The position numbers and the translations under genes were made by a program. 20,521 nt of DNA from a virus, in the UHGV virus genome UHGV-0255412; one strand, 5' to 3'. The notes under the pieces are model-generated. The model did no database searches, had not been told where the DNA came from, and saw nothing but the letters and a program-made list of their open reading frames with translations. Every line of letters starts with the position of its first letter. The first letter of the stretch is position 1. Positions 1 through 20,445 of the stretch are shown piece after piece.

Positions 1-2144
1 TACATCTGCACACCATGCCGCCGCATTATGACGCACTGACAACAGACAAGGACCGGAGGAACGCACCGGATACGGAACTGCTGCCGGGCGCAATCCTTCG
101 CCTGACCTGTGCGGAATGGTGGAAACGCAAACTGTGGCTGTTACGTTGCGAGTGGAGAGAGGAACAACTCCGCGCCGCCTGTCTGGTTTCCAGAAAAACA
201 TCGCCCTATCTGAGCCAGGACGCGTTAAGCGAGTTTCGCGCACAGCGCGAGAAAACTCGCGATTTTCTGAAAAGTTTCATGCTGGAAAACGAAGACGGCT
301 TCACGATTGATCTCGAGACAGTGTATTACGCGGGAGTCAGTAACCCGGTTCACCGTAAGGCAGAAATGATGGCCACCATGAAGGGACTGGAACTTCTGGC
401 CGAAGCCCGTGGCGACAAAGCGGTGTTTCTGACTGTCACATGCCCGTCAAAATACCACGCCACAACAGAGAACGGTCATCCGAACCCCAAATGGAACGGG
501 GCCACCATGCGCGACTCCAGCGATTACCTGGTTAACACGTTTTTTGCGGCGGTCCGCAAGAAACTGAACCGCGACGGCCTGCGCTGGTATGGCATCCGCA
601 CGGTGGAGCCTCACCATGACGGCACTGTGCACTGGCATATGATGGTCTTTGCTCATCCGGAAGAAATCGACAGCATCGTGGCCATCACCCGCGATATTGC
701 CATTCAGGAAGACCGCCACGAGCTGGGCAATGATATTACTCCGCGCTTTAAGGCGGAGTATGTCGACGGCTCAAAAGGCACGCCAACCAGCTACATCGCC
801 ACCTACATCGGAAAGAACCTGGACAGCCGCGCCGTGGATGACATCGACCCGAAAACGGGCAAGCCACGCGTTGACCACGAAACCGGAAAATCAATGGCCG
901 AGAGTGTGGAGCGCGCCATCGGCTGGGCGCGCCTTCATCGGGTCCGCCAGTTCCAGTTCTTTGGCATCCCCTCCCGTCAGGTGTGGCGTGAACTGCGCCG
1001 CCTTGCCAGCCAGATGGCACGCAACCCGGAAGGCCCGCAACGACTGAAAGATGACGCAATGGATGCGGTACTCGCTGCCGCCGATGCCGGGTGTTTTGCC
1101 ACCTACATTGAAAAACAGGGCGGCGTACTTGTTCCACGCAAAGACTACCTGATTCGCACCGCCTACGACCTCGCAGATGAGCTGAATGATTACGGCGAAC
1201 AGAGCGTACAGATTTACGGGATCTGGTCACCACTCATCGGGGAATCCTCCCGTGTGTGCACGCATCCGGATAACTGGAAACTGGTAAGACGTAAACCGGA
1301 AACGGAAGACAGCGCCCGCGAAAATGGTTTTGACCTTCAGGGCGGCCCTGCCGCCCCTTGGACTCGTGGCAATAACTGTCCCCGTGTACAGGAAACGGAC
1401 AACAACGGGACAGAACAGCCGGAAGAACGGCCAGCACCGTGGCCGCAGCTTCCTGACGGCGTTGACGTGAATGAATGGATGCGCTCACTGAAACGGCACG
1501 AACGCCGGGCGCTGATGCGTTCGCTGCGTGACAAACAGGCAAAAAACAGCAGTGATGAAATGCAGAACTGGACACAGAGCCGCAAACAGCCACGGCCTTT
1601 GCCTGATAACCACGAGTTACTCGCTAAAGAATGGCGGGAGTCTGCTGAATCTCTCGGCCTGCATATCGGTGAACAGCAGATGCAGCACCTGTTACGGGGC
1701 GGCAGTCTGTACGTTGACGGCAGCATCATTGCACCGCAGGGATTTGAAATTGTACGCAAACCGGATACCCGCCCGGACAGCCGAATCACGCAGCTCTGGC
1801 AGCGCCTGAGCCGTAATCATGGCGTAAGCAGCACGGAGATCCGCCATAACCCGGTCGCCAGCTATCTGGCACAGCTGGGGGCATCAGACCCCGAAGCAGC
1901 CGCACGCCTGGCATCCACACTTCAGCAGGACCAGAACACCATGAAAACACCCGTTACTGTGCTTTCTGACATGCTGCGCGCCATCCGCGACGCAGAGCAC
2001 GCACAGAGAATCAGTGAAACCACTGAACGCGCCAGCCGCAAAGCAGACCTGCTGCGGGGTGGCCTGACCAGCGGAAACAAAAAACAGACAGAAACGGGAC
2101 TCACGAATCCCGTAAATGAGCAAAAAACGCGCAGTGATATATGA
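1..2144 (+). CDS. A: Replication initiation endonuclease gpA (rolling-circle HUH nickase), 5'-partial at window edge
   Basis: Reading frame is open from the window start (frame 3), with no in-frame stop before the first Met at 15. Contains an HUH-type motif (TVHWHMMVF) and a tyrosine pair (YIATYIGKN) typical of P2 gpA-family initiators. Aligns from memory to the central and C-terminal part of P2 A. Position upstream of the accessory locus matches P2 synteny. Confidence 0.85.
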   Translation, partial: HLHTMPPHYDALTTDKDRRNAPDTELLPGAILRLTCAEWWKRKLWLLRCEWREEQLRAACLVSRKTSPYLSQDALSEFRAQREKTRDFLKSFMLENEDGFTIDLETVYYAGVSNPVHRKAEMMATMKGLELLAEARGDKAVFLTVTCPSKYHATTENGHPNPKWNGATMRDSSDYLVNTFFAAVRKKLNRDGLRWYGIRTVEPHHDGTVHWHMMVFAHPEEIDSIVAITRDIAIQEDRHELGNDITPRFKAEYVDGSKGTPTSYIATYIGKNLDSRAVDDIDPKTGKPRVDHETGKSMAESVERAIGWARLHRVRQFQFFGIPSRQVWRELRRLASQMARNPEGPQRLKDDAMDAVLAAADAGCFATYIEKQGGVLVPRKDYLIRTAYDLADELNDYGEQSVQIYGIWSPLIGESSRVCTHPDNWKLVRRKPETEDSARENGFDLQGGPAAPWTRGNNCPRVQETDNNGTEQPEERPAPWPQLPDGVDVNEWMRSLKRHERRALMRSLRDKQAKNSSDEMQNWTQSRKQPRPLPDNHELLAKEWRESAESLGLHIGEQQMQHLLRGGSLYVDGSIIAPQGFEIVRKPDTRPDSRITQLWQRLSRNHGVSSTEIRHNPVASYLAQLGASDPEAAARLASTLQQDQNTMKTPVTVLSDMLRAIRDAEHAQRISETTERASRKADLLRGGLTSGNKKQTETGLTNPVNEQKTRSDI

Positions 2145-2220: not shown

Positions 2221-3180
2221 ATGAAAATTTGTATCGACGACGGCTCCACCAACATCAAGCTGGCATGGACTGAGAACGGCGAACGCCGCAACGCCATCAG
2301 CCCGAACAGCTTCAAGTCGGAATGGTCTGCGCCGTTCGGTGGCACGCAGCCCGCGAACTACATGCTTGATGGCGTGCGCTATGGTTTTGATCCGGTCAGC
2401 GATCGCTTTGTCCAGACGACCGACACGCAATACCAATACAGCGATGTGAATGTCATTGCCATTCATCACGCGCTGGTCAAATCAGGCATCACGCCACAGG
2501 AGGTGGATGTGGTTGTCACCCTGCCACTGAGCGAGTATTTCGACACAAACGCACAGCCGGACATGGCCAACATCAACCGCAAAAAAGCGAACGTTATGCG
2601 CCCGGTGGAGTACCAGAACGGTGAGGCATTCACTATCCGTAACGTGCGGGTTATGCCTGAATCCATTCCGGCAGGCTTTAAGGCACTGGCTGACATGAGT
2701 CCGTTTGAATCCCTGCTGATTGTGGATTTGGGCGGAACCACGCTGGATGTGGCAAAGGTTCAGGGACAACTGGCAGGTATCAGCCAGGTGTTTTGCGATC
2801 CACACGTAGGCGTTTCCCTGATGGCCGATGCCGTACTGTCGGTGATGGCCACTAACGGTATGCGTACCAGTCACCACATCGCCAATACCATTATCGAACA
2901 TCGCCATGATGAAGCCTGGCTGCGCCAGCACATCCACAATGACGCGCATTACGTCAGCCTGATGGCGGTTATTCGTGAAAAGGAAGAAACACTGAAACAA
3001 CGCGTGATCCGCGCGCTGGCGGGTTTTTCGGGTTACGGGCGGGTGATGGTTGTCGGTGGCGGGGCGGAGATTGTGGCACCCGCTATCCGCGAAGCCTGCG
3101 GAGTTAATGCGACTTTCATCGCGGACGAGGTGCCACAGTTTGCTCTGGTTAATGGGCTGTACGCAATGGACAAGGAGTAA
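2221..3180 (+). CDS. parM: ParM/StbA-family actin-like partition ATPase
   Basis: N-terminus MKICIDDGSTNIKLAW...ISPNSFKSEW...YSDVNVIAIHHAL...EVDVVVTLPL...DLGGTTLDV closely matches my recollection of plasmid R1 ParM (MLVFIDDGSTNIKLQW...). RBS AAGGAA 7 nt upstream of the ATG. 319 aa, typical ParM length. Confidence 0.85.
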   Translation: MKICIDDGSTNIKLAWTENGERRNAISPNSFKSEWSAPFGGTQPANYMLDGVRYGFDPVSDRFVQTTDTQYQYSDVNVIAIHHALVKSGITPQEVDVVVTLPLSEYFDTNAQPDMANINRKKANVMRPVEYQNGEAFTIRNVRVMPESIPAGFKALADMSPFESLLIVDLGGTTLDVAKVQGQLAGISQVFCDPHVGVSLMADAVLSVMATNGMRTSHHIANTIIEHRHDEAWLRQHIHNDAHYVSLMAVIREKEETLKQRVIRALAGFSGYGRVMVVGGGAEIVAPAIREACGVNATFIADEVPQFALVNGLYAMDKE

Positions 3181-3184
3181 ACCA

Positions 3185-3496
3185 ATGACGACACCAACCA
3201 GACGGATAAGTTTCTATCTGAAGCCCGCCGCCGTCAAGAATGAAGGCGAAGCATGCGCATGGCTGGACAGCCTTACACCAGAAGCCCGCAAAAGCGGCCA
3301 ACGCGTGGCTTTTCTGGCCGGGCTGGCACTTCTGAAAATGAATCCGGCAGAGGCTTACCGACTGGCTGCATGGGCTGACGATGAGGCGTTATCAGTGACA
3401 CAAACCAGGACAGAGTGCCCCTTGTCACAGCCAGTACCAACCGCACAGATAACCAGTCAGATGGCTGGGAATATCCGGGCGTTGTTTCCTGAATAA
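3185..3496 (+). CDS. parR: ParR/StbB-like partition adaptor (DNA-binding)
   Basis: 104-aa ORF immediately after parM, with AGGAG 7 nt upstream of the ATG at 3185. The N-terminal pattern RRISFYLKP...LDSLTPEARKSGQRVAFLAGLALLK resembles R1 ParR (RRTIAFKLNP...LDSIPQGERSRLNRAALTAGLALYR). The longer track ORF starting at 3050 overlaps parM and was trimmed. Confidence 0.7.
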   Translation: MTTPTRRISFYLKPAAVKNEGEACAWLDSLTPEARKSGQRVAFLAGLALLKMNPAEAYRLAAWADDEALSVTQTRTECPLSQPVPTAQITSQMAGNIRALFPE

Positions 3497-3503
3497 CACA
3501 ACA

Positions 3504-3523
3504 TCAGGGCGAGTTCGCCCTGA
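3504..3523. terminator. Perfect hairpin (TCAGGGCGA-gt-TCGCCCTGA) between convergent genes; possible bidirectional terminator
   Basis: 9-bp perfect inverted repeat between the parR stop (3496) and the stop of the minus-strand 198-aa gene (3542). No strong T-tract on either side, so terminator function is uncertain. Confidence 0.4.
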
Positions 3524-3541
3524 TGCACAAAGCATGCTAAA

Positions 3542-4138
3542 TCAGAATTTAGTATGCAATTTATCTACCAATCGCTTAGCCTCATTAAGTAGTTTTTGGT
3601 ATTCCCTGCTATCGTTTTCCTGATCTTCATACGCTCGCCGAACACGCCATCGAAGAGCAAGGCATTTTAAATTCCGGTAAAACCTCGGATTACGCTTGCG
3701 GCACTCTTCCATATAAGGTTCAAAATGGACATCAAGAAAGATTAAGGTAGAACCATAAACACGATATAGATACCGCTCATCATACAAACCGTTATTCACG
3801 GCATTAGCACAACGCTCCCACTCATTAAAAATGAGTTTTAATGCTTTTGCTCCATCCGTTTGAGAATATTCCTCTTTTCCCCAATCAGCGATCGGAAAGT
3901 TATGGCGATCCTTATGAATACGTAGCACTTCTGACCACGCATCAACTATGTCCTTGTTACGTTTATATGCAGCCTCGAAATCCAACGAATTTTTTTCGCG
4001 CGACGTTTTTCTTTGATTTCGTATGCTAATCACTGCAATAAGCGCACCCGCAGCTCCTGGATAAAACGTAGGGCTGGATTCCCAAATACTGGAAAAAATT
4101 TTTCCTATATAACTAAGGGCAGAAAGAACTAGATCCAT
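3542..4138 (-). CDS. Hypothetical protein (198 aa) with a hydrophobic N-terminus; candidate accessory or defence cargo
   Basis: Long ORF on the minus strand within a visibly AT-rich segment that contrasts with the GC-rich phage backbone. N-terminal hydrophobic stretches (LVLSALSYIGKIF..., GAAGALIAVISI) suggest a membrane anchor. I recognise no family from the sequence. Confidence 0.6.
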   Translation of the reverse strand: MDLVLSALSYIGKIFSSIWESSPTFYPGAAGALIAVISIRNQRKTSREKNSLDFEAAYKRNKDIVDAWSEVLRIHKDRHNFPIADWGKEEYSQTDGAKALKLIFNEWERCANAVNNGLYDERYLYRVYGSTLIFLDVHFEPYMEECRKRNPRFYRNLKCLALRWRVRRAYEDQENDSREYQKLLNEAKRLVDKLHTKF

Positions 4139-4251: not shown

Positions 4252-4491
4252 AGTTAGTCTCCTCTTTTCAATCATTTAAACATCACTAATTTACTTTTAA
4301 CATGGAGATGGTTTTACAGTTGTCAACCACCTCCCCCAAATCTGTTGGGGTAAGCTATCACGCCTACCATACACATACAATGATGAGGCTATATCGTGCA
4401 GCCACACCGACAAGGATAAGTACATCTTCTTCGCTGTCTTTATGTGACCAAATATAGCACATTTGAAGCGATATACATCCTGTAATGATAC

Positions 4492-4518
4492 TGCACAATA
4501 GTGCACAAATTTGCACAA
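4492..4518. repeat. Three direct TGCACAA repeats phased at exactly 10 bp (cTGCACAAta gTGCACAAat tTGCACAAtt)
   Basis: Read directly from the sequence at 4492-4498, 4502-4508 and 4512-4518. Additional copies of the heptamer occur at 4584-4590 and 3524-3530. Confidence 0.6.
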
Positions 4519-4891
4519 TTTTTTTGAACGACTTTTTGCCCTTCCGGCCCGCGTGGCGGCTGGATCCGTCAAGGATCCGTGCGTGCACAAAAAAACACGC
4601 TTTTTCTGCGCGCAGGTGACGGGGGAACAGCCCGCGTTTCAGGGGGTAAATAGCATTCCCTGAACGATGTCGCAGCGACACAACAGAATGGCTGTATCGC
4701 TCACGCTGAGCGTGAAAAAGACGTAAGGTGTTCTGATTTGATGGTATGAAAGGTAAGGCCGTCAAAATCGCACTGAGGCGGCGAGAACATGCAGTCAGCG
4801 CGGCGGGATTGTGTAAGAGTCTGGCCGTCGATGATAGCGATAAGTCGGAAGACGTCGTGAAATTATCTGATTGATACAGGAGCTGGAGAGT

Positions 4892-4916
4892 CGGGGCATA
4901 AATTTTTTATGCCCCG
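4892..4916. repeat. Near-perfect 25-bp palindrome / hairpin (CGGGGCATAAA-ttt-TTTATGCCCCG)
   Basis: 11-bp stem with a 3-nt loop, read directly. No trailing T-tract on either strand, so not a canonical intrinsic terminator. Lies ~100 bp upstream of the 175-aa gene. Confidence 0.5.
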
Positions 4917-5017
4917 GCGAAGCAGCAGACAAGCGAAGCGCGTCAGTGATGCGGCACCTTGCCGACCACACTTCATAAGTGCAAAATACGAGCAAAGAAA
5001 TCAATGGAGGCTGTTCT

Positions 5018-5542
5018 ATGGTCATTAATTACAAGCAGTTACGAGAAAAACGAGATCAGGTAAAGGAGAGTTTTCGCCGCAATGAAGACCTGACCCCGCT
5101 TGTACGCATTGCCCAGGGAATTGTTGATGCTTATGAAATCTCTCTGGAGCTGCCATCACAGACATGGACGGATAGCGACGGTAATCGCCAGCATTACGTT
5201 TCATGCGGACTGGAAACGGCTGAAGGGTTTCGCAGAATGCCTTTATCTCAGATTCCTGCCGCTACCCCCAAAGCAAGGGGCGGCAATGATGAGCGAAAAC
5301 TGATTTTCAGCATTGAGACAGTGGTTGACGACACACCTGGCGAAGTCGCCTTCGTGCATACTCCTCTTTCGATCGCAATGTATAACGATGAAATACAGGT
5401 TCGCGTTAATAATAATATCGTGCCACTTAAAGAAGGTAATTCACCATACACCACCGTTTGTGAAGCCATTCAATATTACGTTCTCTCTGAAATTGATAAT
5501 CTCAAGCCTGACGGCACCCAGAAAATGGTTCAACTCTGGTAA
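5018..5542 (+). CDS. Hypothetical protein (175 aa); orphan accessory gene
   Basis: GGAGG 7 nt upstream of the ATG at 5018. The track ORF from 4979 has no RBS and was trimmed. Followed by a strong terminator. No recognisable motifs. Confidence 0.6.
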   Translation: MVINYKQLREKRDQVKESFRRNEDLTPLVRIAQGIVDAYEISLELPSQTWTDSDGNRQHYVSCGLETAEGFRRMPLSQIPAATPKARGGNDERKLIFSIETVVDDTPGEVAFVHTPLSIAMYNDEIQVRVNNNIVPLKEGNSPYTTVCEAIQYYVLSEIDNLKPDGTQKMVQLW

Positions 5543-5547
5543 AAAGG

Positions 5548-5574
5548 ACAGCCCCATCACGGGGCTGTTTTTTC
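5548..5574. terminator. Rho-independent terminator (CAGCCCC-atcac-GGGGCTG followed by TTTTTT), shared by convergent genes
   Basis: 7-bp GC-rich stem and T6 run directly after the stop of the 175-aa gene. The stop codon of minus-strand gene Q (5557-5559) lies inside the loop, and an A-run on the other side would give a U-tract for the minus-strand transcript. Confidence 0.65.
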
Positions 5575-6603
5575 ATCAAGAAGAGCATAAGAATTAAAAC
5601 GGATCACCTCTTCGCCAAGCCAGTCATTGATGTGCTTCATGGCCTCCATAACGGGCATCAGCTCGTTAATTGCGTAAACCCGCGCGGCCTTTTCCACATC
5701 ACCAAACGCACTTTTTTCACCCGGCATCGCCCCCATCAGTTGCGGCGGAACGCGGTGCGCAGCCAGCACATCATCACGGGATGCCGCCTTAACATTCATG
5801 AACTCATCCTTTGCGGTGATCTGCTGGAACGGCAAAATTTGCACACCTTCTTTGCCCCCGTTGGGCGCATGAATGAGCACGTTTTTAAACGCACCACCAC
5901 CACGTGCACCCTGTAGCGTTTCTTTCAGGGAGTCCATGCTTTCGCGGTTTACCTGCGCTGCACCGATGTAGATGATACACCCGGCGTGGGATCCGTTGTC
6001 GTAATACAGTTTTCTGAACATGTCCGCCGAATGAGACAGGCTGGCCGAGAGTAATGCGCCGAGATATTCCGGCATGCCGTAGATTTCCTGGTTAATGTCA
6101 GGATTCATCAGGTGGCACACTTTGCCAGGGCGAAACTGAAACGCGTCCTTGCCATCCTGCACATACCACCATGATTCAAGATCGCTTCCGCGTCGCATGT
6201 ATTTCGCCAGTGCGTGCCGTAATTTAAGCGGTTCGCCGAGCATATTGTTTCGAAGCTCAAGGAATGCGTTACCGAACACAAACCAGTCCAGCGCCAGCGC
6301 CGAGAAATCCTGCCGGGAAAGCAGCGGGTGCGGGATGTAGCAACCGAGTAATACATTGCGCTTAAAGTAAAGCGCAGACTGATGCCAGGACGTTTGCCGG
6401 GCAGCTCTTGCCAGACCGTACCAGTCCACCGGGGTTTCATACCACCGCCCGTTATCAGCACAGTACATATTGTCCAGCAGGTCATGCCCGGTCAGGCGAT
6501 AAGGACCATCAAATGTGAATGCACTGAGCGATGATTCTTTCCTGAGCGCATCAGCGAGATCAATGCGTGAACTCATGCGCACTTTTTTATTTTTTCTGCT
6601 CAT
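5557..6603 (-). CDS. Q: Portal protein gpQ
   Basis: 348 aa (P2 Q is ~344 aa). Sits directly downstream of, and 1 nt overlapped with, the terminase gene on the minus strand, as in the P2 P-Q operon. Confidence 0.85.
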   Translation of the reverse strand: MSRKNKKVRMSSRIDLADALRKESSLSAFTFDGPYRLTGHDLLDNMYCADNGRWYETPVDWYGLARAARQTSWHQSALYFKRNVLLGCYIPHPLLSRQDFSALALDWFVFGNAFLELRNNMLGEPLKLRHALAKYMRRGSDLESWWYVQDGKDAFQFRPGKVCHLMNPDINQEIYGMPEYLGALLSASLSHSADMFRKLYYDNGSHAGCIIYIGAAQVNRESMDSLKETLQGARGGGAFKNVLIHAPNGGKEGVQILPFQQITAKDEFMNVKAASRDDVLAAHRVPPQLMGAMPGEKSAFGDVEKAARVYAINELMPVMEAMKHINDWLGEEVIRFNSYALLDEKTAP

Positions 6604-8354
6604 CAGAACTCCATAACCGTGAAACGCTCGTTTTCTCCTTCGCCGCCAATCGGTTCGTTAATGACAGCAAGCATGGTTGCCCACGCAAGGTCGCCGTGGC
6701 TGATCCCCCTCGCGCGGTCCGTTTCGTAAGTGATAAAGCCGCCCGGTGTTTTCACCTTACGCACGGCGTTAAAGGCCGCAACCAGCTCGCGTTCGGCGCG
6801 ATCGTATTCCCACCGCCCGGCACGCATTATTTGCAGCATTTTCAGTACCAGCGACCGTTTTGATGACAGCGTGAAGGTGTACGGAATAGCAGCAGGGAAA
6901 AACCGTTTCACTATCTGATAAACAGCCTCCCCGTTCCCGCCCGTCACATCAATGCCGATGTGTTCCACGTTGTAGCGATACGTGAACTCTTCAATGACTC
7001 TGGCCTGTTCTTCAAACTCCAGCCCCTGAACGCGTCGCGTCTCCACCGTTCGAAAACGGCCACCAGGAACAGCCGGAGGAACCACCACGGACACAGCGCC
7101 GCTGTCGCCGTTGCCACTGCTGCCGTTTGCGTCATACCCAATCCATACCGGACGATTCCCCATCGGGCGGGGAGCAAAAGGTTTCCAGTCTTTCCAGTCG
7201 TCGTATCCGTCAACACCACAGCCAATCAGGATATTCAGGTTAAATGCCGATTCCCCTTCGCGGACAAACTCACACATATAGAGATTGAGGAACTCGTCTT
7301 CGGTGTTTTCATCACGAATTTCATCAATATCGGTGTGTTTCCAGCCGTGATTAACCACATCTTCCAGCGTGACAATTTGCCGCCACGTCCGGTCAGGGCA
7401 GATAAGCCCGTTATGCAGCGTTTTCCAGTCCACAGAAAAACGCTGGCGTTTATGCGAGGCCTTTTTCTCGTTCCAGCGGTCGCCGTTCCAGTAGGCGTAT
7501 GCCTCGTGCGTTTCGGTGGATGGCGTGGAGAAGTAGGTGCGCCGCAGTCCGCTGAGGGTTGCCATAGCGCCAGCCACCTTGCGCAGTTCAGCAAAGCGAC
7601 TGACCCAGAAAAATTCATCAAAATAAAAATTGCCCGTATAGGACTGTGCCGACGCAGCAGAAGTACCGAGAAAATGCAGCTCTGCGCCGTTGGAGAGGAT
7701 GATTTTATCGCCCCCTTTCAGCTCCACATCAACTTCAGCCGCGGCTTTCTGAATAATGCTTTTAAACTGGAACGCCTGACGACGCGACGCAGACAAAAAA
7801 ATCTGGTTACGCTGGTAAGGTTGCGCCACATCGTCACGCAGCGCCATCAGCAGAGCTTCCTGTGCAAAATACCAGGTCGCCCCAATCTGTCGGGATTTCA
7901 GGATCATCCTGTTACGTATCCCGGCTTCCCTGCAAAGGGTCAGGGAGTCAAACCAGCCCCGCTGATGCCACTCCAGCCTGCTGATGATTTTTTCCCGCAG
8001 TGCGGCAATCTGCTCCGGCGTGAAATGATTTTTGAGTTTTTTCGCCCGGCCTTTCTTTCCTGTGGCCGTCGCATCCGGCTGGCCATCATGCAATTTTTTA
8101 AGCTGCCGGGTCAGCAGGTCTATTTCCTTGAAGTCACCACCTGTTTTATTCTGTTTTTCAGTGAGCTGGATGAGGCGCGCATCGATGGACTGCGTGACAC
8201 GCTGCACGGGTGGCGTTTCATCCCACTGGTCGCGTTTTTTCCACGCATAAATCGTGTTCGGGTTTATTCCCATCAGACGTGATATTTCTGCGGGCGGATA
8301 ACCCTGCCAGTAAAGTTGCCGCGCACGCTGGCGCACAAAAGCGTCCTGAATCAT
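6603..8354 (-). CDS. P: Terminase large (ATPase) subunit gpP
   Basis: 583 aa (P2 P is ~590 aa). N-terminal helix-turn-helix-like region (YPPAEISRLMGINPNTIYAWKKR) and length/position are typical of P2-family terminase ATPase. Divergent from gene O. Confidence 0.9.
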   Translation of the reverse strand: MIQDAFVRQRARQLYWQGYPPAEISRLMGINPNTIYAWKKRDQWDETPPVQRVTQSIDARLIQLTEKQNKTGGDFKEIDLLTRQLKKLHDGQPDATATGKKGRAKKLKNHFTPEQIAALREKIISRLEWHQRGWFDSLTLCREAGIRNRMILKSRQIGATWYFAQEALLMALRDDVAQPYQRNQIFLSASRRQAFQFKSIIQKAAAEVDVELKGGDKIILSNGAELHFLGTSAASAQSYTGNFYFDEFFWVSRFAELRKVAGAMATLSGLRRTYFSTPSTETHEAYAYWNGDRWNEKKASHKRQRFSVDWKTLHNGLICPDRTWRQIVTLEDVVNHGWKHTDIDEIRDENTEDEFLNLYMCEFVREGESAFNLNILIGCGVDGYDDWKDWKPFAPRPMGNRPVWIGYDANGSSGNGDSGAVSVVVPPAVPGGRFRTVETRRVQGLEFEEQARVIEEFTYRYNVEHIGIDVTGGNGEAVYQIVKRFFPAAIPYTFTLSSKRSLVLKMLQIMRAGRWEYDRAERELVAAFNAVRKVKTPGGFITYETDRARGISHGDLAWATMLAVINEPIGGEGENERFTVMEF

Positions 8355-16241: not shown

Positions 16242-16842
16242 TTCACTGTTACCACCATCAGCCAGCAATTTCATGCGTTGTGCCGAAGCCGTCGGAACAC
16301 GCATTACAGACATTCCGGTAGACCTCAACACGCTGTGGTCGCCGGACACCTGCCCGGTGCATCTGCTGCCTTATCTCGCCTGGGCGTTTTCCGTTGACCG
16401 CTGGGATCGCAACTGGCCGGAAGAGACAAAGCGACAGGTAATTCGTGATGCATGGCTGATACACCGACACAAAGGGACCATCAGCGCACTGCGAAGAGCC
16501 GTGGAGCCTCTCGGCTACCTGATTGAAGTAAAGGAGTGGTGGCAACTCAACGAGGAGCCGGGAACATTTCGCATTGTTGTCGGAGTACTTGATCAGGGCA
16601 TCACCGATGAAATGTATCAGGAACTTGAGCGCCTTATTGCGGATGCAAAACCAGTAAGTCGCCATCTGACGGGGCTGGCGATCAGCCTGAGTGTGAACGG
16701 AAAGATTTTCGTTGGTACGGGATGCTATCACGGCGATGCCCTGACGGTTTATCCCTACACCCCGGAGTCCATTATTGTCGAAGGGGATTATTTCCCTGCC
16801 CCGGCCATTCATTTAATTGATAATCTGAGAGTAAACGCATGA
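16234..16842 (+). CDS. I: Baseplate / tail-fibre attachment protein gpI
   Basis: ATG at 16234 overlapping the J stop (track ORF begins at an upstream GTG). Blocks NPDTCP, LLPYLAWAFSVDRWD and ELERLIADAKPVSRHL match recalled P2 I. Confidence 0.85.
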   Translation: MSNSLLPPSASNFMRCAEAVGTRITDIPVDLNTLWSPDTCPVHLLPYLAWAFSVDRWDRNWPEETKRQVIRDAWLIHRHKGTISALRRAVEPLGYLIEVKEWWQLNEEPGTFRIVVGVLDQGITDEMYQELERLIADAKPVSRHLTGLAISLSVNGKIFVGTGCYHGDALTVYPYTPESIIVEGDYFPAPAIHLIDNLRVNA

Positions 16843-18443
16843 CAGTGAAATACTACGCCATTCTGACTAATCAGGGCGCGGCACGACTGGCTAACGCGAC
16901 GATGCTCGGCAGTAAGCTGAATCTGACGCAAATGGCCGTTGGTGATGCAAATGGTGTGTTACCAACACCAGACCCTGCACAAACAAAACTGATTAACCAG
17001 AAACGCATTGCACCGCTGAATCTTCTGAGTGTTGACCCTAACAATCAGAGCCAGATTATTGCGGAACAAATCATCCCTGAAAACGAGGGAGGATTCTGGA
17101 TCCGTGAGATTGGTCTTTATGATGATGAAGGCGTACTTATTGCAGTGGCAAACTGCCCGGAAACGTACAAACCGCAGTTGCAGGAAGGCAGTGGACGCAC
17201 CCAGACTATCCGCATGATTCTGGTTGTCACGAACACCGAAGCCATCACGCTGAAAATCGACCCGTCTGTGGTTCTGGCAACCCGCAAATATGTGGATGAT
17301 AAAATCTCAGAGCACGAACAGTCACGACGTCACCCGGACGCCTCGCTGACCGCAAAAGGCTTTGTTCAACTTAGCAGCGCCACTAAAAGCACGTCTGAAA
17401 CGCTTGCGGCAACGCCAAAGGCTGTTAAGGAGGCATATGACCTGGCTAATGGCAAATACACCGCACAGGACGCTACCACTGCGCGAAAAGGTCTTGTCCA
17501 GCTCAGTAGCGCCACGAACAGCACGTCTGAAACGCTGGCAGCGACACCAAAAGCTGTTAAGGCGGTAATGGATGAAACGAACAAGAAAGCACCATTAAAC
17601 AGCCCGGCACTGACCGGAACGCCAACAACACCAACGGCGGCACAGGGGACTAATAGTACCCAGATCGCAAGCACAGCTTTCGTTATGGCCGCGATTGCCG
17701 CACTTGTAGATTCGTCACCTGATGCACTGAACACGCTGAACGAACTGGCTGCGGCGCTGGGCAATGACCCGAATTTTGCGACCACCATGACTAACGCGCT
17801 TGCGGGTAAGCAACCGAAGGATGCCACCCTGACGGCGCTGGCGGAGCTTGCTACATCAGCAGATAAACTCCCATATTTTACAGGGGCAGATCGTGCCGCG
17901 TTAACCGCGTTGACAAGTGTTGGACGTGCCATTCTTGGTAAAACCAGCACTCAGGGAGTTCTTGATTACCTTGGTTTAGGGGAAGGTTCGGCGCTGCCTG
18001 TTGGTGTGGCCGTTCCATGGCCCTCAGCCACGCTGCCAGCGGGGTGGTTGAAATGTAACGGCGCAGCATTTTCTTCTGAAATGTACCCCAATCTGGCAAA
18101 GGCCTACCCCACCAATAAATTACCGGATTTACGGGGTGAATTTATTCGCGGCTGGGATGACGGACGGGGCGTTGATAATGGGCGCAACCTACTGTCTGCA
18201 CAGTCTGACGCTATTCAGAATATAGTTGGCACTTTTGGGCGTACTCAGCTTTTTAAAGATGTGTTTAATTCAGGACCATTTAGTCAAACTGACTCTATAT
18301 TATCAGTAGGCTTACAACCAACTGAGATCATTGAAGGATATGGTGCTTCTGTATGGACATTCGACGCCTCTCGCTCAGTTCGCACAGCATCTGAAACACG
18401 CCCCCATAACATTGCGTTTAATTACATCGTAAGGGCAGCATGA
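16839..18443 (+). CDS. H: Tail-fibre protein gpH: constant N-terminal part fused in-frame to variable C-terminal cassette 1 (tail-collar-like tip)
   Basis: N-terminus and the duplicated QLSSAT(K/N)STSETLAATPKAVK motif match P2 H. The C-terminal ~150 aa (from GLGEGSALPVGV to NIAFNYIVRAA) belong to a cassette family repeated four more times downstream. Confidence 0.9.
   Translation: MTVKYYAILTNQGAARLANATMLGSKLNLTQMAVGDANGVLPTPDPAQTKLINQKRIAPLNLLSVDPNNQSQIIAEQIIPENEGGFWIREIGLYDDEGVLIAVANCPETYKPQLQEGSGRTQTIRMILVVTNTEAITLKIDPSVVLATRKYVDDKISEHEQSRRHPDASLTAKGFVQLSSATKSTSETLAATPKAVKEAYDLANGKYTAQDATTARKGLVQLSSATNSTSETLAATPKAVKAVMDETNKKAPLNSPALTGTPTTPTAAQGTNSTQIASTAFVMAAIAALVDSSPDALNTLNELAAALGNDPNFATTMTNALAGKQPKDATLTALAELATSADKLPYFTGADRAALTALTSVGRAILGKTSTQGVLDYLGLGEGSALPVGVAVPWPSATLPAGWLKCNGAAFSSEMYPNLAKAYPTNKLPDLRGEFIRGWDDGRGVDNGRNLLSAQSDAIQNIVGTFGRTQLFKDVFNSGPFSQTDSILSVGLQPTEIIEGYGASVWTFDASRSVRTASETRPHNIAFNYIVRAA
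17355..17562 (+). repeat. Internal tandem duplication in gpH (132-bp / 44-aa period; QLSSAT(K/N)STSETLAATPKAVK)
   Basis: Two near-identical units read directly, starting at ~17355 and ~17487; also present in P2 H as I recall. Confidence 0.7.
17959..17984 (+). other. Candidate Hin/Gin/Cin-family crossover site at the constant/variable junction of gpH (TTCTTGATTACCTTGGTTTAGGGGAA)
   Basis: 26 bp with 18/26 identity to hixL as I recall it (TTCTTGAAAACCAAGGTTTTTGATAA), including the TTCTTGA left end, the ACC-NN-GGTTT core and the terminal AA. Sits exactly where cassette homology begins. Confidence 0.5.
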
Positions 18444-18462
18444 AAACGTTGGTTTGGGGGGA
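18437..18462 (+). other. Candidate crossover site at the cassette 1 / cassette 2 junction (AGCATGAAAACGTTGGTTTGGGGGGA)
   Basis: hix-like AAAAC-GTT-GGTTT core spanning the gpH stop codon and the start of the next cassette; the same junction sequence recurs at every cassette boundary. Confidence 0.45.
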
Positions 18463-18930
18463 GGCTCTGCGCTGCCCGTTGGTGTACCTGTTCCATGGCC
18501 CTCAGCCACACCGCCAACGGGGTGGCTAAAATGTAACGGAGCAGCATTTTCTTCTGAAAAGTACCCCAAGCTGGCAAAAGCCTACCCCACCAATAAATTA
18601 CCGGATTTACGGGGTGAATTTATTCGTGGCTGGGATGATGGGCGAGGAATTGATGCAGCACGCGCTTTATTGAGCATTCAAACCGGGATGTTGGAAAAAC
18701 ACCGCCATATTGTTGTAGCTAACGATGGATATGACACAAAGGATGAATGGGAGTTGGCCACGATTTTCAAAAAAACATATACACAAGGCAGGGGGCTTGA
18801 TGCCACAAATACAGGAGGGAGTTTGATTCCATCACCAACGCTTCATTCACGAGGAAGTATTGGTAACACAGGTGGTAGTGAAACCCGCCCCCGCAATATT
18901 GCATTTAACTATATCGTGAGGGCGGCTTAG
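18454..18930 (+). CDS. Silent (promoterless, start-less) alternative tail-fibre C-terminal cassette 2
   Basis: Frame is open from 18433 with no RBS or ATG. First ~68 aa are near-identical to the C-terminal cassette of gpH, the middle is divergent, and the end is the conserved ETRPRNIAFNYIVRAA. Confidence 0.7.
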   Translation: MGGGSALPVGVPVPWPSATPPTGWLKCNGAAFSSEKYPKLAKAYPTNKLPDLRGEFIRGWDDGRGIDAARALLSIQTGMLEKHRHIVVANDGYDTKDEWELATIFKKTYTQGRGLDATNTGGSLIPSPTLHSRGSIGNTGGSETRPRNIAFNYIVRAA

Positions 18931-18936
18931 TTATAT

Positions 18937-19548
18937 TCAACTGGCTGCTGCCAGTGGTATTTCCGGCCAGTTGATATCTGATGCCATGTTTATATCCATT
19001 GCGTTCAGTGCGTCTATATAATCCAGCACGGCGTTAAGCCGGGTGGTTTCTGCCTGCGTCAACTTCCGCCCGGCCTGCAACTTCAACTGAATCAGACTAA
19101 TGGAAGCCATTGCAGTATCAATCAGCGACTGGCGCTGTGTTTCTGCCGCTTCTACTGCGGCGCTATGCTGTGCCTCGGTATCCGTCACCCATTTTTCACC
19201 ATCCCATTTATCGTATGGTGTTAACGGGGCGATAGTGGTTGTATTTTTCGGGTAGTCACCCAGCGTCGTGATTTCTTCGGTGTTTCCCGTATCAGTGCTA
19301 TAGACGGTTTCACCACGATGATCTGGCGTATACTCCCATGAATTTAAATTCTCCGAACGGCGGATAGCATAGCCCGCTTTATGTGCGCCCGGGGCATCTA
19401 AACAGGAATTTGCCGGAATACCGACACCCGCAGCAAGATATTCAGTTGATTCGGAAATATATTCCCGTGTCTCACCATCGTAGTTATAAACGACGATGTT
19501 TCCTGCCTGTACGGCAATAAGGTCATCATTTAATATCGCGTTATTCAT
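18937..19548 (-). CDS. Tail-fibre assembly chaperone (gpG / Tfa / Mu U-like)
   Basis: 203 aa on the minus strand, start overlapping the stop of cassette 3 (TAATG). C-terminal ...DALNAMDINMASDINWPEIP resembles the conserved Tfa C-terminus. Confidence 0.8.
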   Translation of the reverse strand: MNNAILNDDLIAVQAGNIVVYNYDGETREYISESTEYLAAGVGIPANSCLDAPGAHKAGYAIRRSENLNSWEYTPDHRGETVYSTDTGNTEEITTLGDYPKNTTTIAPLTPYDKWDGEKWVTDTEAQHSAAVEAAETQRQSLIDTAMASISLIQLKLQAGRKLTQAETTRLNAVLDYIDALNAMDINMASDINWPEIPLAAAS

Positions 19549-20006
19549 TATGCGGTTCTCACAATATAATTGAAGGCAATATTGCGTGGGCGGGTTTCAT
19601 TCCCCTCTGAGGATTCCGTTCTGTATTGACTGGTAAATCTACCGTTAATTGCACCTTGCCGGACGGCGTTATCTGTCGACAACAGACTATCCCCTCCTTT
19701 GTCATTTGGCACCAGTACCGTGTTATCCCACGCATCCCATGACCGAATATTATGATAATGACTTCCTGTTAACCACCCCTGCATGCTTAAGATGCCCCTT
19801 CCGGCATCCACCCCTCGCCCATCATCCCAGCCACGAATAAATTCACCCCGTAAATCCGGTAATTTATTGGTGGGGTAGGCCTTTGCCAGTCTGGGATACA
19901 TTTCAGAAGAAAATGCTGCGCCGTTACATTTCAGCCACCCCGTTGGCGGCGTGGCTGAGGGCCATGGAACGGGCACACCAACGGGCAGCGCAGAGCCTTC
20001 CCCCAA
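19548..20006 (-). CDS. Alternative tail-fibre C-terminal cassette 3 (inverted orientation), translationally coupled to the assembly chaperone
   Basis: Same conserved 5' (GEGSALPVGVPVPWPSATPPTGWLKCNGAAFSSE...LPDLRGEFIRGWDDGRG) and 3' (ETRPRNIAFNYIVRTA) ends with a distinct middle. No ATG; the frame is open back to the previous cassette's stop. Confidence 0.75.
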   Translation of the reverse strand: MGEGSALPVGVPVPWPSATPPTGWLKCNGAAFSSEMYPRLAKAYPTNKLPDLRGEFIRGWDDGRGVDAGRGILSMQGWLTGSHYHNIRSWDAWDNTVLVPNDKGGDSLLSTDNAVRQGAINGRFTSQYRTESSEGNETRPRNIAFNYIVRTA

Positions 20007-20023
20007 ACCAACGTTTTTATGCT
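19998..20023 (-). other. Candidate crossover site at the cassette 4 / cassette 3 junction (inverted orientation)
   Basis: Reverse complement reads AGCATAAAAACGTTGGTTTGGGGGAA, the same hix-like junction as at 18437-18462. Confidence 0.45.
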
Positions 20024-20445
20024 GCCCTCACGATGTAATTAAACGCAATATTACGAGGACGAATGGTTACATAATTAACCCCATCACCTCGTGAAGGCCC
20101 CGCAAATGAAAAACGGGAAAAGCCTGGTTGGTTAGAAACAATTTGGTCATAGTTATTGATTGAATGACCAGACCCAATGTCGAAATTACCTCCGTAATGA
20201 GAAAAACTTGTACCATCCTGCCCAGAAAGCAGGGTACGTCCCGCATCAATCCCGCGCCCATCATCCCAGCCACGGATAAACTCACCCCGTAAATCCGGTA
20301 ATTTTAACGTTGGGTAAGCCTTTGCCAGTTTGGGGTATTTTTCAGAAGAAAATGCTGCTCCGTTACATTTTAGCCACCCCGTTGGCGGTGTGGCTGAGGG
20401 CCATGGAACAGGTACACCAACGGGCAGCGCAGAGCCTTCCCCCAA
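20017..20445 (-). CDS. Alternative tail-fibre C-terminal cassette 4 (inverted orientation)
   Basis: Conserved 5' and 3' ends as in the other cassettes, with a different central region (…GQDGTSFSHYGGNFDIGSGHSINNYDQ…). Confidence 0.75.
   Translation of the reverse strand: MGEGSALPVGVPVPWPSATPPTGWLKCNGAAFSSEKYPKLAKAYPTLKLPDLRGEFIRGWDDGRGIDAGRTLLSGQDGTSFSHYGGNFDIGSGHSINNYDQIVSNQPGFSRFSFAGPSRGDGVNYVTIRPRNIAFNYIVRAA

Follow-up and report, generated by a model that had tools for sequence, protein, structure and literature searches.

P2-like phages carry, between the replication gene A (gpA) and the portal gene (gpQ), a documented hotspot rich in anti-phage systems (PMC9122126; PMC13586616). The window analysed here, a stretch of 20,521 nucleotides from the UHGV virus genome UHGV-0255412, includes this region, and next to its portal gene lies a small gene (5018-5542) that the initial annotation described as an orphan, possibly a second cargo gene serving defence, anti-defence or lysogenic conversion. 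Is this a real gene, is it an element separate from the known cargo, and what might its product do for the phage or for the lysogen? The hotspot was known beforehand, as was the protein, listed as "hypothetical" in Table S5A of Rousset et al. 2022 under accessions WP_000236495, WP_032152538, WP_001407222 and WP_000236489 (PMC9122126); the gene is a new, uncharacterised example of an element type already known. The systems tested by Rousset et al. do not include the protein, and its sequence was not found in the examined part of their Table S5B (PMC9122126). Neither the accessions nor the PHROG number turned up in a literature search, and the DefensePredictor supplements consulted do not list the accessions. 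New here are a probable second cargo slot, the replacement of the portal tail, the breadth of the protein family and its predicted fold.

The window is a P88-like (Xuanwuvirus, Peduoviridae, P2-like) prophage of Escherichia coli. Its nearest phage records are Escherichia phage P88 and other Xuanwuvirus (91-94% identity), and a prophage of E. coli O145 is 100% identical across the open reading frame (ORF) under study. The gene order is that of a P2-like phage (Table 1), with head, lysis and tail genes of P2 type beyond the large terminase. After gpA comes a partition module made of ParM and a ParR-like Plasmid_stab_B protein (2221-3496); such a module occurs in about a quarter of P2-like prophages and may allow them to persist as plasmids (Rousset et al., PMC9122126). 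It is followed by a DUF4760 cargo gene (198 aa, phrog_2284, GC 40.7%, GC3 34%), which has a terminator-like hairpin just downstream (3501-3526) and lies on the other side of the probable cos site. In the part of Table S5B covered here, DUF4760 appears as 'system 3' with 1102 occurrences, and is described as having one transmembrane segment and sometimes a four-transmembrane partner protein (PMC9122126). At the far end of the window, a tail-fibre gene (16839-18443) is followed by three separate tail-fibre C-terminal 'Collar' cassettes, and the whole segment 16839-20445 has the look of an invertible host-range region with several cassettes, of the kind known from P1 Cin or Mu Gin. A recombinase gene lies just past the equivalent tail-fibre region in a closely related prophage.

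Table 1. Features of the window around the gene at 5018-5542, followed by the genomic contexts of its relatives.
Feature	Position or context	Strand	Remarks
P2-type replication gene A (gpA)	15-2144	+	Pfam and PHROG scans
ParM partition protein	2221-3180	+	Pfam and PHROG scans
Plasmid_stab_B (ParR-like) partition protein	3185-3496	+	Pfam and PHROG scans
DUF4760 gene	3542-4138	-	Pfam and PHROG scans
Most conserved spacer block	4490-4640		Probable cos location; ends approximate
Conserved 67-bp segment	4880-4946		Contains hairpin 4890-4918; ends at left junction of the cassette
Accessory cassette (putative promoter, ribosome-binding site, coding sequence, terminator)	4948 to ~5580	+	~630 bp; insertion/deletion relative to P88
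Putative sigma-70 promoter	4959-4987	+	TTGCCG-17 nt-CAAAAT; score 8/12
Ribosome-binding site GGAGG	5006-5010	+	7 nt before ATG; kept in E. coli alleles
Coding sequence	5018-5542	+	174 aa, 19.8 kDa, pI 5.0; soluble; phrog_5091 member
Two-way intrinsic terminator hairpin	5543-5573		Common to the gene and the portal operon
Portal 3' end travelling with the cassette	5557-5607	-	EKTAP, against TQPTS in P88
Portal (gpQ homologue)	5557-6603	-	PF04860, phrog_68; neighbour outside the cargo
Large terminase	6603-8354	-	Pfam and PHROG scans
'Collar' cassette	18454-18930	+	
Tail-fibre assembly gene	18937-19548	-	
'Collar' cassette	19548-20006	-	
'Collar' cassette	20017-20445	-	
P2-like relatives	Adjoining the portal gene		
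P2-like relative	Directly after gpA, followed by HicB and Phd-Fic genes		
Lambda-like relatives	Between a Q-like antiterminator and the holin		
Lambda-like relatives	Between lysis genes and terminase		
E217/Pam3-like relatives	Between spike and sheath initiator		Two diverged prophages

Reading from the ATG at 5018 to the TAA at 5540-5542, the ORF holds 174 codons and a stop; the 175 residues reported initially include the stop codon. The program-made ORF list proposes an earlier start at a GTG (4979), which would give 187 aa. We retain the ATG at 5018 as the real start, because it has the GGAGG sequence 7 nt upstream and because all members of the family begin at this point with M-x-I-T/N-Y. 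Two minus-strand ORFs overlapping the upstream spacer (4364-4765 and 4795-5025) were rejected as spurious since they have no family matches and lie within conserved non-coding sequence. One could object that the ORF itself arose by chance or is a decaying, functionless pseudogene, and the truncated or fused copies present in databases (fragments of 96-124 aa, one fusion of 256 aa) would fit that view. Yet pairwise dN/dS among E. coli alleles is 0.07-0.15; full-length homologues, with length and motifs kept, extend down to ~22% identity across genera of the Enterobacterales; the ribosome-binding site and the terminator are conserved; and the AlphaFold model, built with 49 relatives, is confident (pLDDT 81, pTM 0.70). 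The selection and conservation data effectively refute this objection, to which we attach next to no probability, and the ORF is a genuine gene under purifying selection. The initial annotation was also borne out in seeing neither transmembrane segments nor a signal peptide: no membrane or export signal was found, the Kyte-Doolittle maximum over 19 residues being 0.99 and the N-terminus highly charged. From its sequence, the protein is predicted to be cytoplasmic.

The limits of the element carrying this gene were set by DNA alignment with P88, 569R5 and the prophage of O145 RM8988, together with an analysis of the junctions, which are clean (4947/4948 and ~5580). In P88, P884B11 and the prophages of strains PEC148 and EC03 the slot is empty and the spacer runs straight into the portal gene, so that the TCA at 4944-4946 is the portal stop codon in these gene-less prophages. 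Likewise, the E. coli matches ending at query position 447 overlap a 'phage portal protein' annotation. No duplication or remnant was found at the left junction; the segment 4944-5017 was considered as a decayed duplicate of the portal 3' end and rejected, its alignment score being no better than that of shuffled sequence. The hairpin within the conserved 67-bp segment that stops at this junction is strong (dG -21.5 kcal/mol, z -5.1). The same segment recurs beside the portal gene in other P2-like lineages at 94-100% identity (locus L032 and hit H147), and in L032 an Ogr/Delta-like zinc-finger gene stands between it and the portal. It may represent a shared recombination joint or a portal-operon terminator.

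Base composition sets the cassette apart as well. Its coding sequence has a GC content of 46.1% and a GC3 of 44.6%, against 52-57% and 58-70%, respectively, in the core genes used for comparison (gpA, portal, terminase and capsid), and the cassette as a whole stands at 46% against 54% for the window; its composition is foreign to the phage backbone. The gene also has expression signals of its own. Besides the ribosome-binding site, already noticed in the initial annotation, we detected a single promoter candidate scoring at least 8/12 within 4880-5017, which falls under the 9/12 threshold of the consensus scan. A very similar arrangement, TTGTCT-17-CAAAAT, is kept upstream of a 62%-identical Salmonella orthologue, in a spacer whose remaining sequence has diverged. 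On the other side, the terminator hairpin is stable when read on either strand (dG -20.6 kcal/mol, z -6.6 on the plus strand; -16.9 kcal/mol, z -4.4 on the minus strand) and can terminate in both directions because an A-tract precedes it and a T-tract follows it, in agreement with the bidirectional terminator first proposed for the gene and the converging portal gene. This terminator is conserved in E. coli alleles, and a variant of it occurs in Salmonella.

The right end of the cassette reaches into the portal gene itself. The portal stop codon (5557-5559) sits in the loop of the terminator hairpin, and the last five portal codons, EKTAP, are encoded by the right arm of the hairpin and the T-tract. 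The ~30 portal nucleotides next to these codons are more diverged than the remainder of the gene, and portal matches in E. coli genomes begin, according to the variant, at query position 1, 26 or 38. At least three portal C-terminal tails exist in E. coli prophages: those with the cassette have EKTAP, those lacking it TQPTS or TQPTA. Whatever sequence adjoins the portal gene downstream therefore determines how this essential structural protein ends.

Upstream of the cassette, alignment with P88 and its relatives delineates a conserved non-coding spacer extending from ~4500 to 4947. Its most conserved block (4490-4640) is the only part shared, at ~75% identity, with a different P2-like lineage, where it also stands between cargo and portal. 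The linear record of a P88-like phage, LR595891, starts at the equivalent of window position 4537, and positions 4548-4557 read CGCGTGGCGG, similar to the beginning of the P2 cos overhang GGCGAGGCGG; a BLAST comparison with the P2 cos junction gave short scattered word matches only. The placement of cos is approximate, as it is based on conservation and on the start position of a linear record, but the site very probably lies to the left of the gene. Such a position would define two cargo slots, one between the partition genes and cos, occupied here by the DUF4760 gene, and one between cos and the portal, occupied by the gene at 5018-5542. Elsewhere in the spacer, ~90 nucleotides (~4628-4720) show a weak similarity to phage 434, phage 2B8 and mEp332 (73-75% identity, E 2e-4 to 3e-3).

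In the P2 record, cosL occupies 1-19 and gene Q starts at 187, which leaves cos 186 bp away from the end of that gene, and the one feature between them is the terminator tQ (160-181). The initial annotation is correct in saying that P2 has no equivalent gene at this position. The old/tin cargo of P2 resembles the gene studied here in lying between gpA and gpQ, in being variable and in having its own expression signals, but it lies across cos, where the P2 virion DNA has its right end, whereas the present gene is on the portal side of the probable cos site.

How widespread is the cassette? In a set of 5426 complete E. coli genomes, 397 have the gene, at 403 places that are all chromosomal, and the portal gene occurs at 1206 places in 1079 genomes. 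From these numbers of places, about one third of the P88-like E. coli prophages carry the gene, a lower bound since megablast misses alleles that have diverged further. The heavy sampling of ST131 biases this fraction and inflates the E. coli counts: the 90-95% identity band accounts for 279 of the 397 genomes, and all matches sampled from it are 94.7-94.9% identical, as in ST131 strains. Other carriers include O145, O111 and O103 strains. Among 16 related phage records, four have the gene and 12 do not. Moreover, the gene is found with at least four different cargo sets beyond the spacer, which are a 198-aa DUF4760 gene, a 166-aa DUF4760 gene with a 280-aa protein, a ClpX zinc-finger protein with a hypothetical protein, and an 89-aa hypothetical protein; further arrangements are listed in Table S5A of Rousset et al. 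(PMC9122126).

Taken with its own expression signals, this patchy occurrence upholds the proposal of a separate cargo gene, and its absence from P2, P88 and 12 of the 16 records shows that it is not a core gene of P2-like phages. The gene forms the coding portion of a moron, a self-contained cassette of accessory nature whose presence does not depend on the cargo across the spacer. Like the lambda morons bor and lom and the HK97 moron gp15, it is a single gene of foreign composition set between conserved phage genes, flanked by a promoter-like site and a terminator, and carried by some relatives only. The products of bor, lom and gp15 are envelope proteins, whereas the present protein is predicted to remain in the cytoplasm.

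The designation 'orphan' does not hold. The protein matches the phrog_5091 profile over its full length (E 6.4e-66, 222 bits, residues 1-168 against positions 1-164 of 164), as do all 49 aligned relatives, and the family comprises ~75 clusters in prophages of Enterobacterales. A search of 5.8 billion proteins returned only close relatives from E. coli and Salmonella, while a profile search of 1.8 billion cluster representatives returned 75 clusters (at 50% identity), mostly of ~155-185 aa with some fragments. Named sources are Escherichia, Salmonella, Xenorhabdus, Edwardsiella, Providencia, Morganella and an insect symbiont. The relatives are all named "hypothetical", except for one apparent mislabel as "site-specific integrase". 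The positions conserved in the family are Y39, S42, L43, L45, W50, D52, G55, Y60, V61, F97, T101, D104, D105 and C148, with D104 and D105 being part of a TVxDD motif. Since phrog_5091 has no functional annotation, membership in it says nothing of mechanism.

The insertion sites of the family (Table 1) are typical of accessory genes, and no partner gene is conserved across them. In a different P2-like prophage (L024, 5001-7053), a 46%-identical relative follows gpA and precedes a HicB-like antitoxin gene and a Phd-Fic pair; the main hotspot, with toxin-antitoxin cargo alongside, is therefore open to the family as well. A survey of 50,697 phage records located the family in four P88-like phages and nowhere else, apart from one partial match in a phage that carries a Q-like antiterminator gene. 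Judging from these records, the family appears restricted to temperate phages.

The genomic contexts bear on the possibility that the protein is an accessory helper of morphogenesis or packaging, dispensable in itself and working together with the portal, terminase or baseplate during assembly. Members are always located near structural or packaging genes (the portal in P2-like phages, the terminase in lambda-like ones), two diverged E217/Pam3-like prophages have the gene at the same spike/sheath-initiator position, and the cassette alters the C-terminus of the portal protein. However, the type of structural neighbour varies between phage types, one P2-like phage has the gene after gpA beside toxin-antitoxin genes, and the gene is missing from two thirds of otherwise near-identical prophages as well as from P88 and P2. 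Foreign GC content and a terminator of its own are likewise hard to reconcile with an assembly factor, and no similarity to structural families was found in Pfam or PHROGs. Clear homology to a known morphogenesis protein, which the initial annotation had named as a finding that would speak against its view, was not found in Pfam, NCBIfam or the structural PHROGs, and we consider a helper of this kind very improbable.

Searches for function gave few leads. Pfam and NCBIfam returned no meaningful match for the protein or its 49 relatives. PADLOC returned none for the protein and a single marginal one for the relatives (E 0.009). A profile search of PDB sequences yielded chance matches only (E >= 0.07), and Foldseek against viral structures (BFVD) found nothing at E <= 0.001. 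In the predicted model, two helices lie at the N-terminus, some eight strands make up an antiparallel sheet, and another helix lies at the C-terminus, an alpha+beta arrangement closest to small protein-binding modules such as the FP domain of PI31, type III secretion chaperones, immunity proteins and an anti-CRISPR. The likeness to the FP domains of PI31 and Fbxo7, to type III secretion chaperones, to Imm52, TriTu and AcrIIA11, and to the N-terminal domain of DarA/Hdf is one of shape only: sequence identities are 4-11%, Z never reaches 8, and there is no evidence of common descent.

The explanation that we prefer, tentatively and well short of calling it probable, is that the lysogen makes the product of this gene, a soluble protein that would work by binding and not as an enzyme, and would thereby exclude other phages. 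The gene would be transcribed from its own weak putative sigma-70 promoter (TTGCCG-17-CAAAAT), against the late P-Q operon, and would hence be made in the lysogen independently of late transcription. One-to-one binding of a target protein would be the most likely mode of action, because the predicted fold most resembles such binding modules and because there is no catalytic motif, membrane segment or partner gene. The target would most likely be a protein of an incoming, unrelated phage. In P2, Tin and Old benefit the lysogen from the neighbouring hotspot through exclusion or defence, and the present protein would likewise act as a single-gene exclusion or defence factor. We favour this reading because of the moron architecture, the orientation against the late operon, the apparently temperate-only range and the enrichment of the hotspot for anti-phage systems. 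Against it, no homology links the family to defence in PADLOC, Pfam or NCBIfam, the protein has no sequence or domain in common with Old, Tin or the PADLOC families, and the putative promoter scores just 8/12. To our knowledge, small soluble non-enzymatic defence factors made of a single protein are uncommon.

The orientation of the gene in other phage types allows another reading. In contrast to the P2-like copies, the lambda-like and E217-like copies are co-directional with late genes, and the gaps are in some cases short (48-72 nt in the E217/Pam3-like context L006). Late lytic expression is possible for these copies, which would fit a role serving the phage equally well. Consequently, a counter-defence function is nearly as plausible as exclusion: the protein would be made during the phage's own infection or induction to neutralise a host immune protein, and might be carried in the virion like DarA and Hdf of P1. 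Possible co-transcription with late genes would suit such a protein, as would a patchy distribution over unrelated phages, which is typical of anti-defence genes. Its mild acidity (pI 5.0) and the description of the DarA and Hdf N-terminal domains as helices with a small sheet (PMC12810830) could be read in the same sense. A relationship to DarA or Hdf was nevertheless rejected, as hhalign gave a probability of 0.3% for both and the profile search of the PDB found nothing; so was a DNA-mimic anti-restriction protein, since a pI of 5.0 and a net charge of ~-5 are too mildly acidic for a typical DNA mimic. Furthermore, the family was not found in virulent phages among the 50,697 records, and the gene of P2-like phages is oriented opposite to the late operon, downstream of a promoter-like site of its own. 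Anti-defence genes detected so far in P2-like prophages are very few (PMC13586616), a scarcity that reflects current knowledge. On balance we regard counter-defence as rather unlikely for this gene, if a serious contender.

The protein could also act outside phage conflict altogether, as a lysogenic conversion factor whose binding to a host protein would change host physiology or fitness, in areas such as stress response, colonisation or regulation. The moron architecture is the same as that of lambda bor and lom, carriers of the gene include the successful lineage ST131 as well as O145, O111 and O103 strains, and the hotspot is known to harbour non-defence cargo as well, including partition systems and cytolethal distending toxin (PMC9122126). 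However, the protein lacks a secretion signal, a membrane anchor and any virulence-associated domain, and on sequence alone nothing separates such a role from defence. We hold lysogenic conversion to be unlikely, and retain exclusion of other phages by the lysogen as our working explanation.

Considering defence and counter-defence together, phrog_5091 may represent a new family of single-gene, non-enzymatic conflict factors that act by binding a target and occupy, in P88-like prophages, a second slot between cos and portal; we give this broader proposal a chance not far below even. The gene is common: its carriers, 397 of the 5426 complete E. coli genomes, include ST131 and several serogroups associated with Shiga toxin. 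Should it prove an ordinary host-modulating accessory gene, the finding would be routine. If the proposal is true, such a family would be present in ~7% of complete E. coli genomes, among them those of pandemic ST131. A defence or counter-defence role would add a small binding, non-catalytic protein to the known repertoire and would bear on the host range of phages used for therapy against ST131. The cassette also provides the portal gene with its stop codon, its last five codons and its terminator, illustrating how tightly accessory cassettes can be spliced into essential operons.
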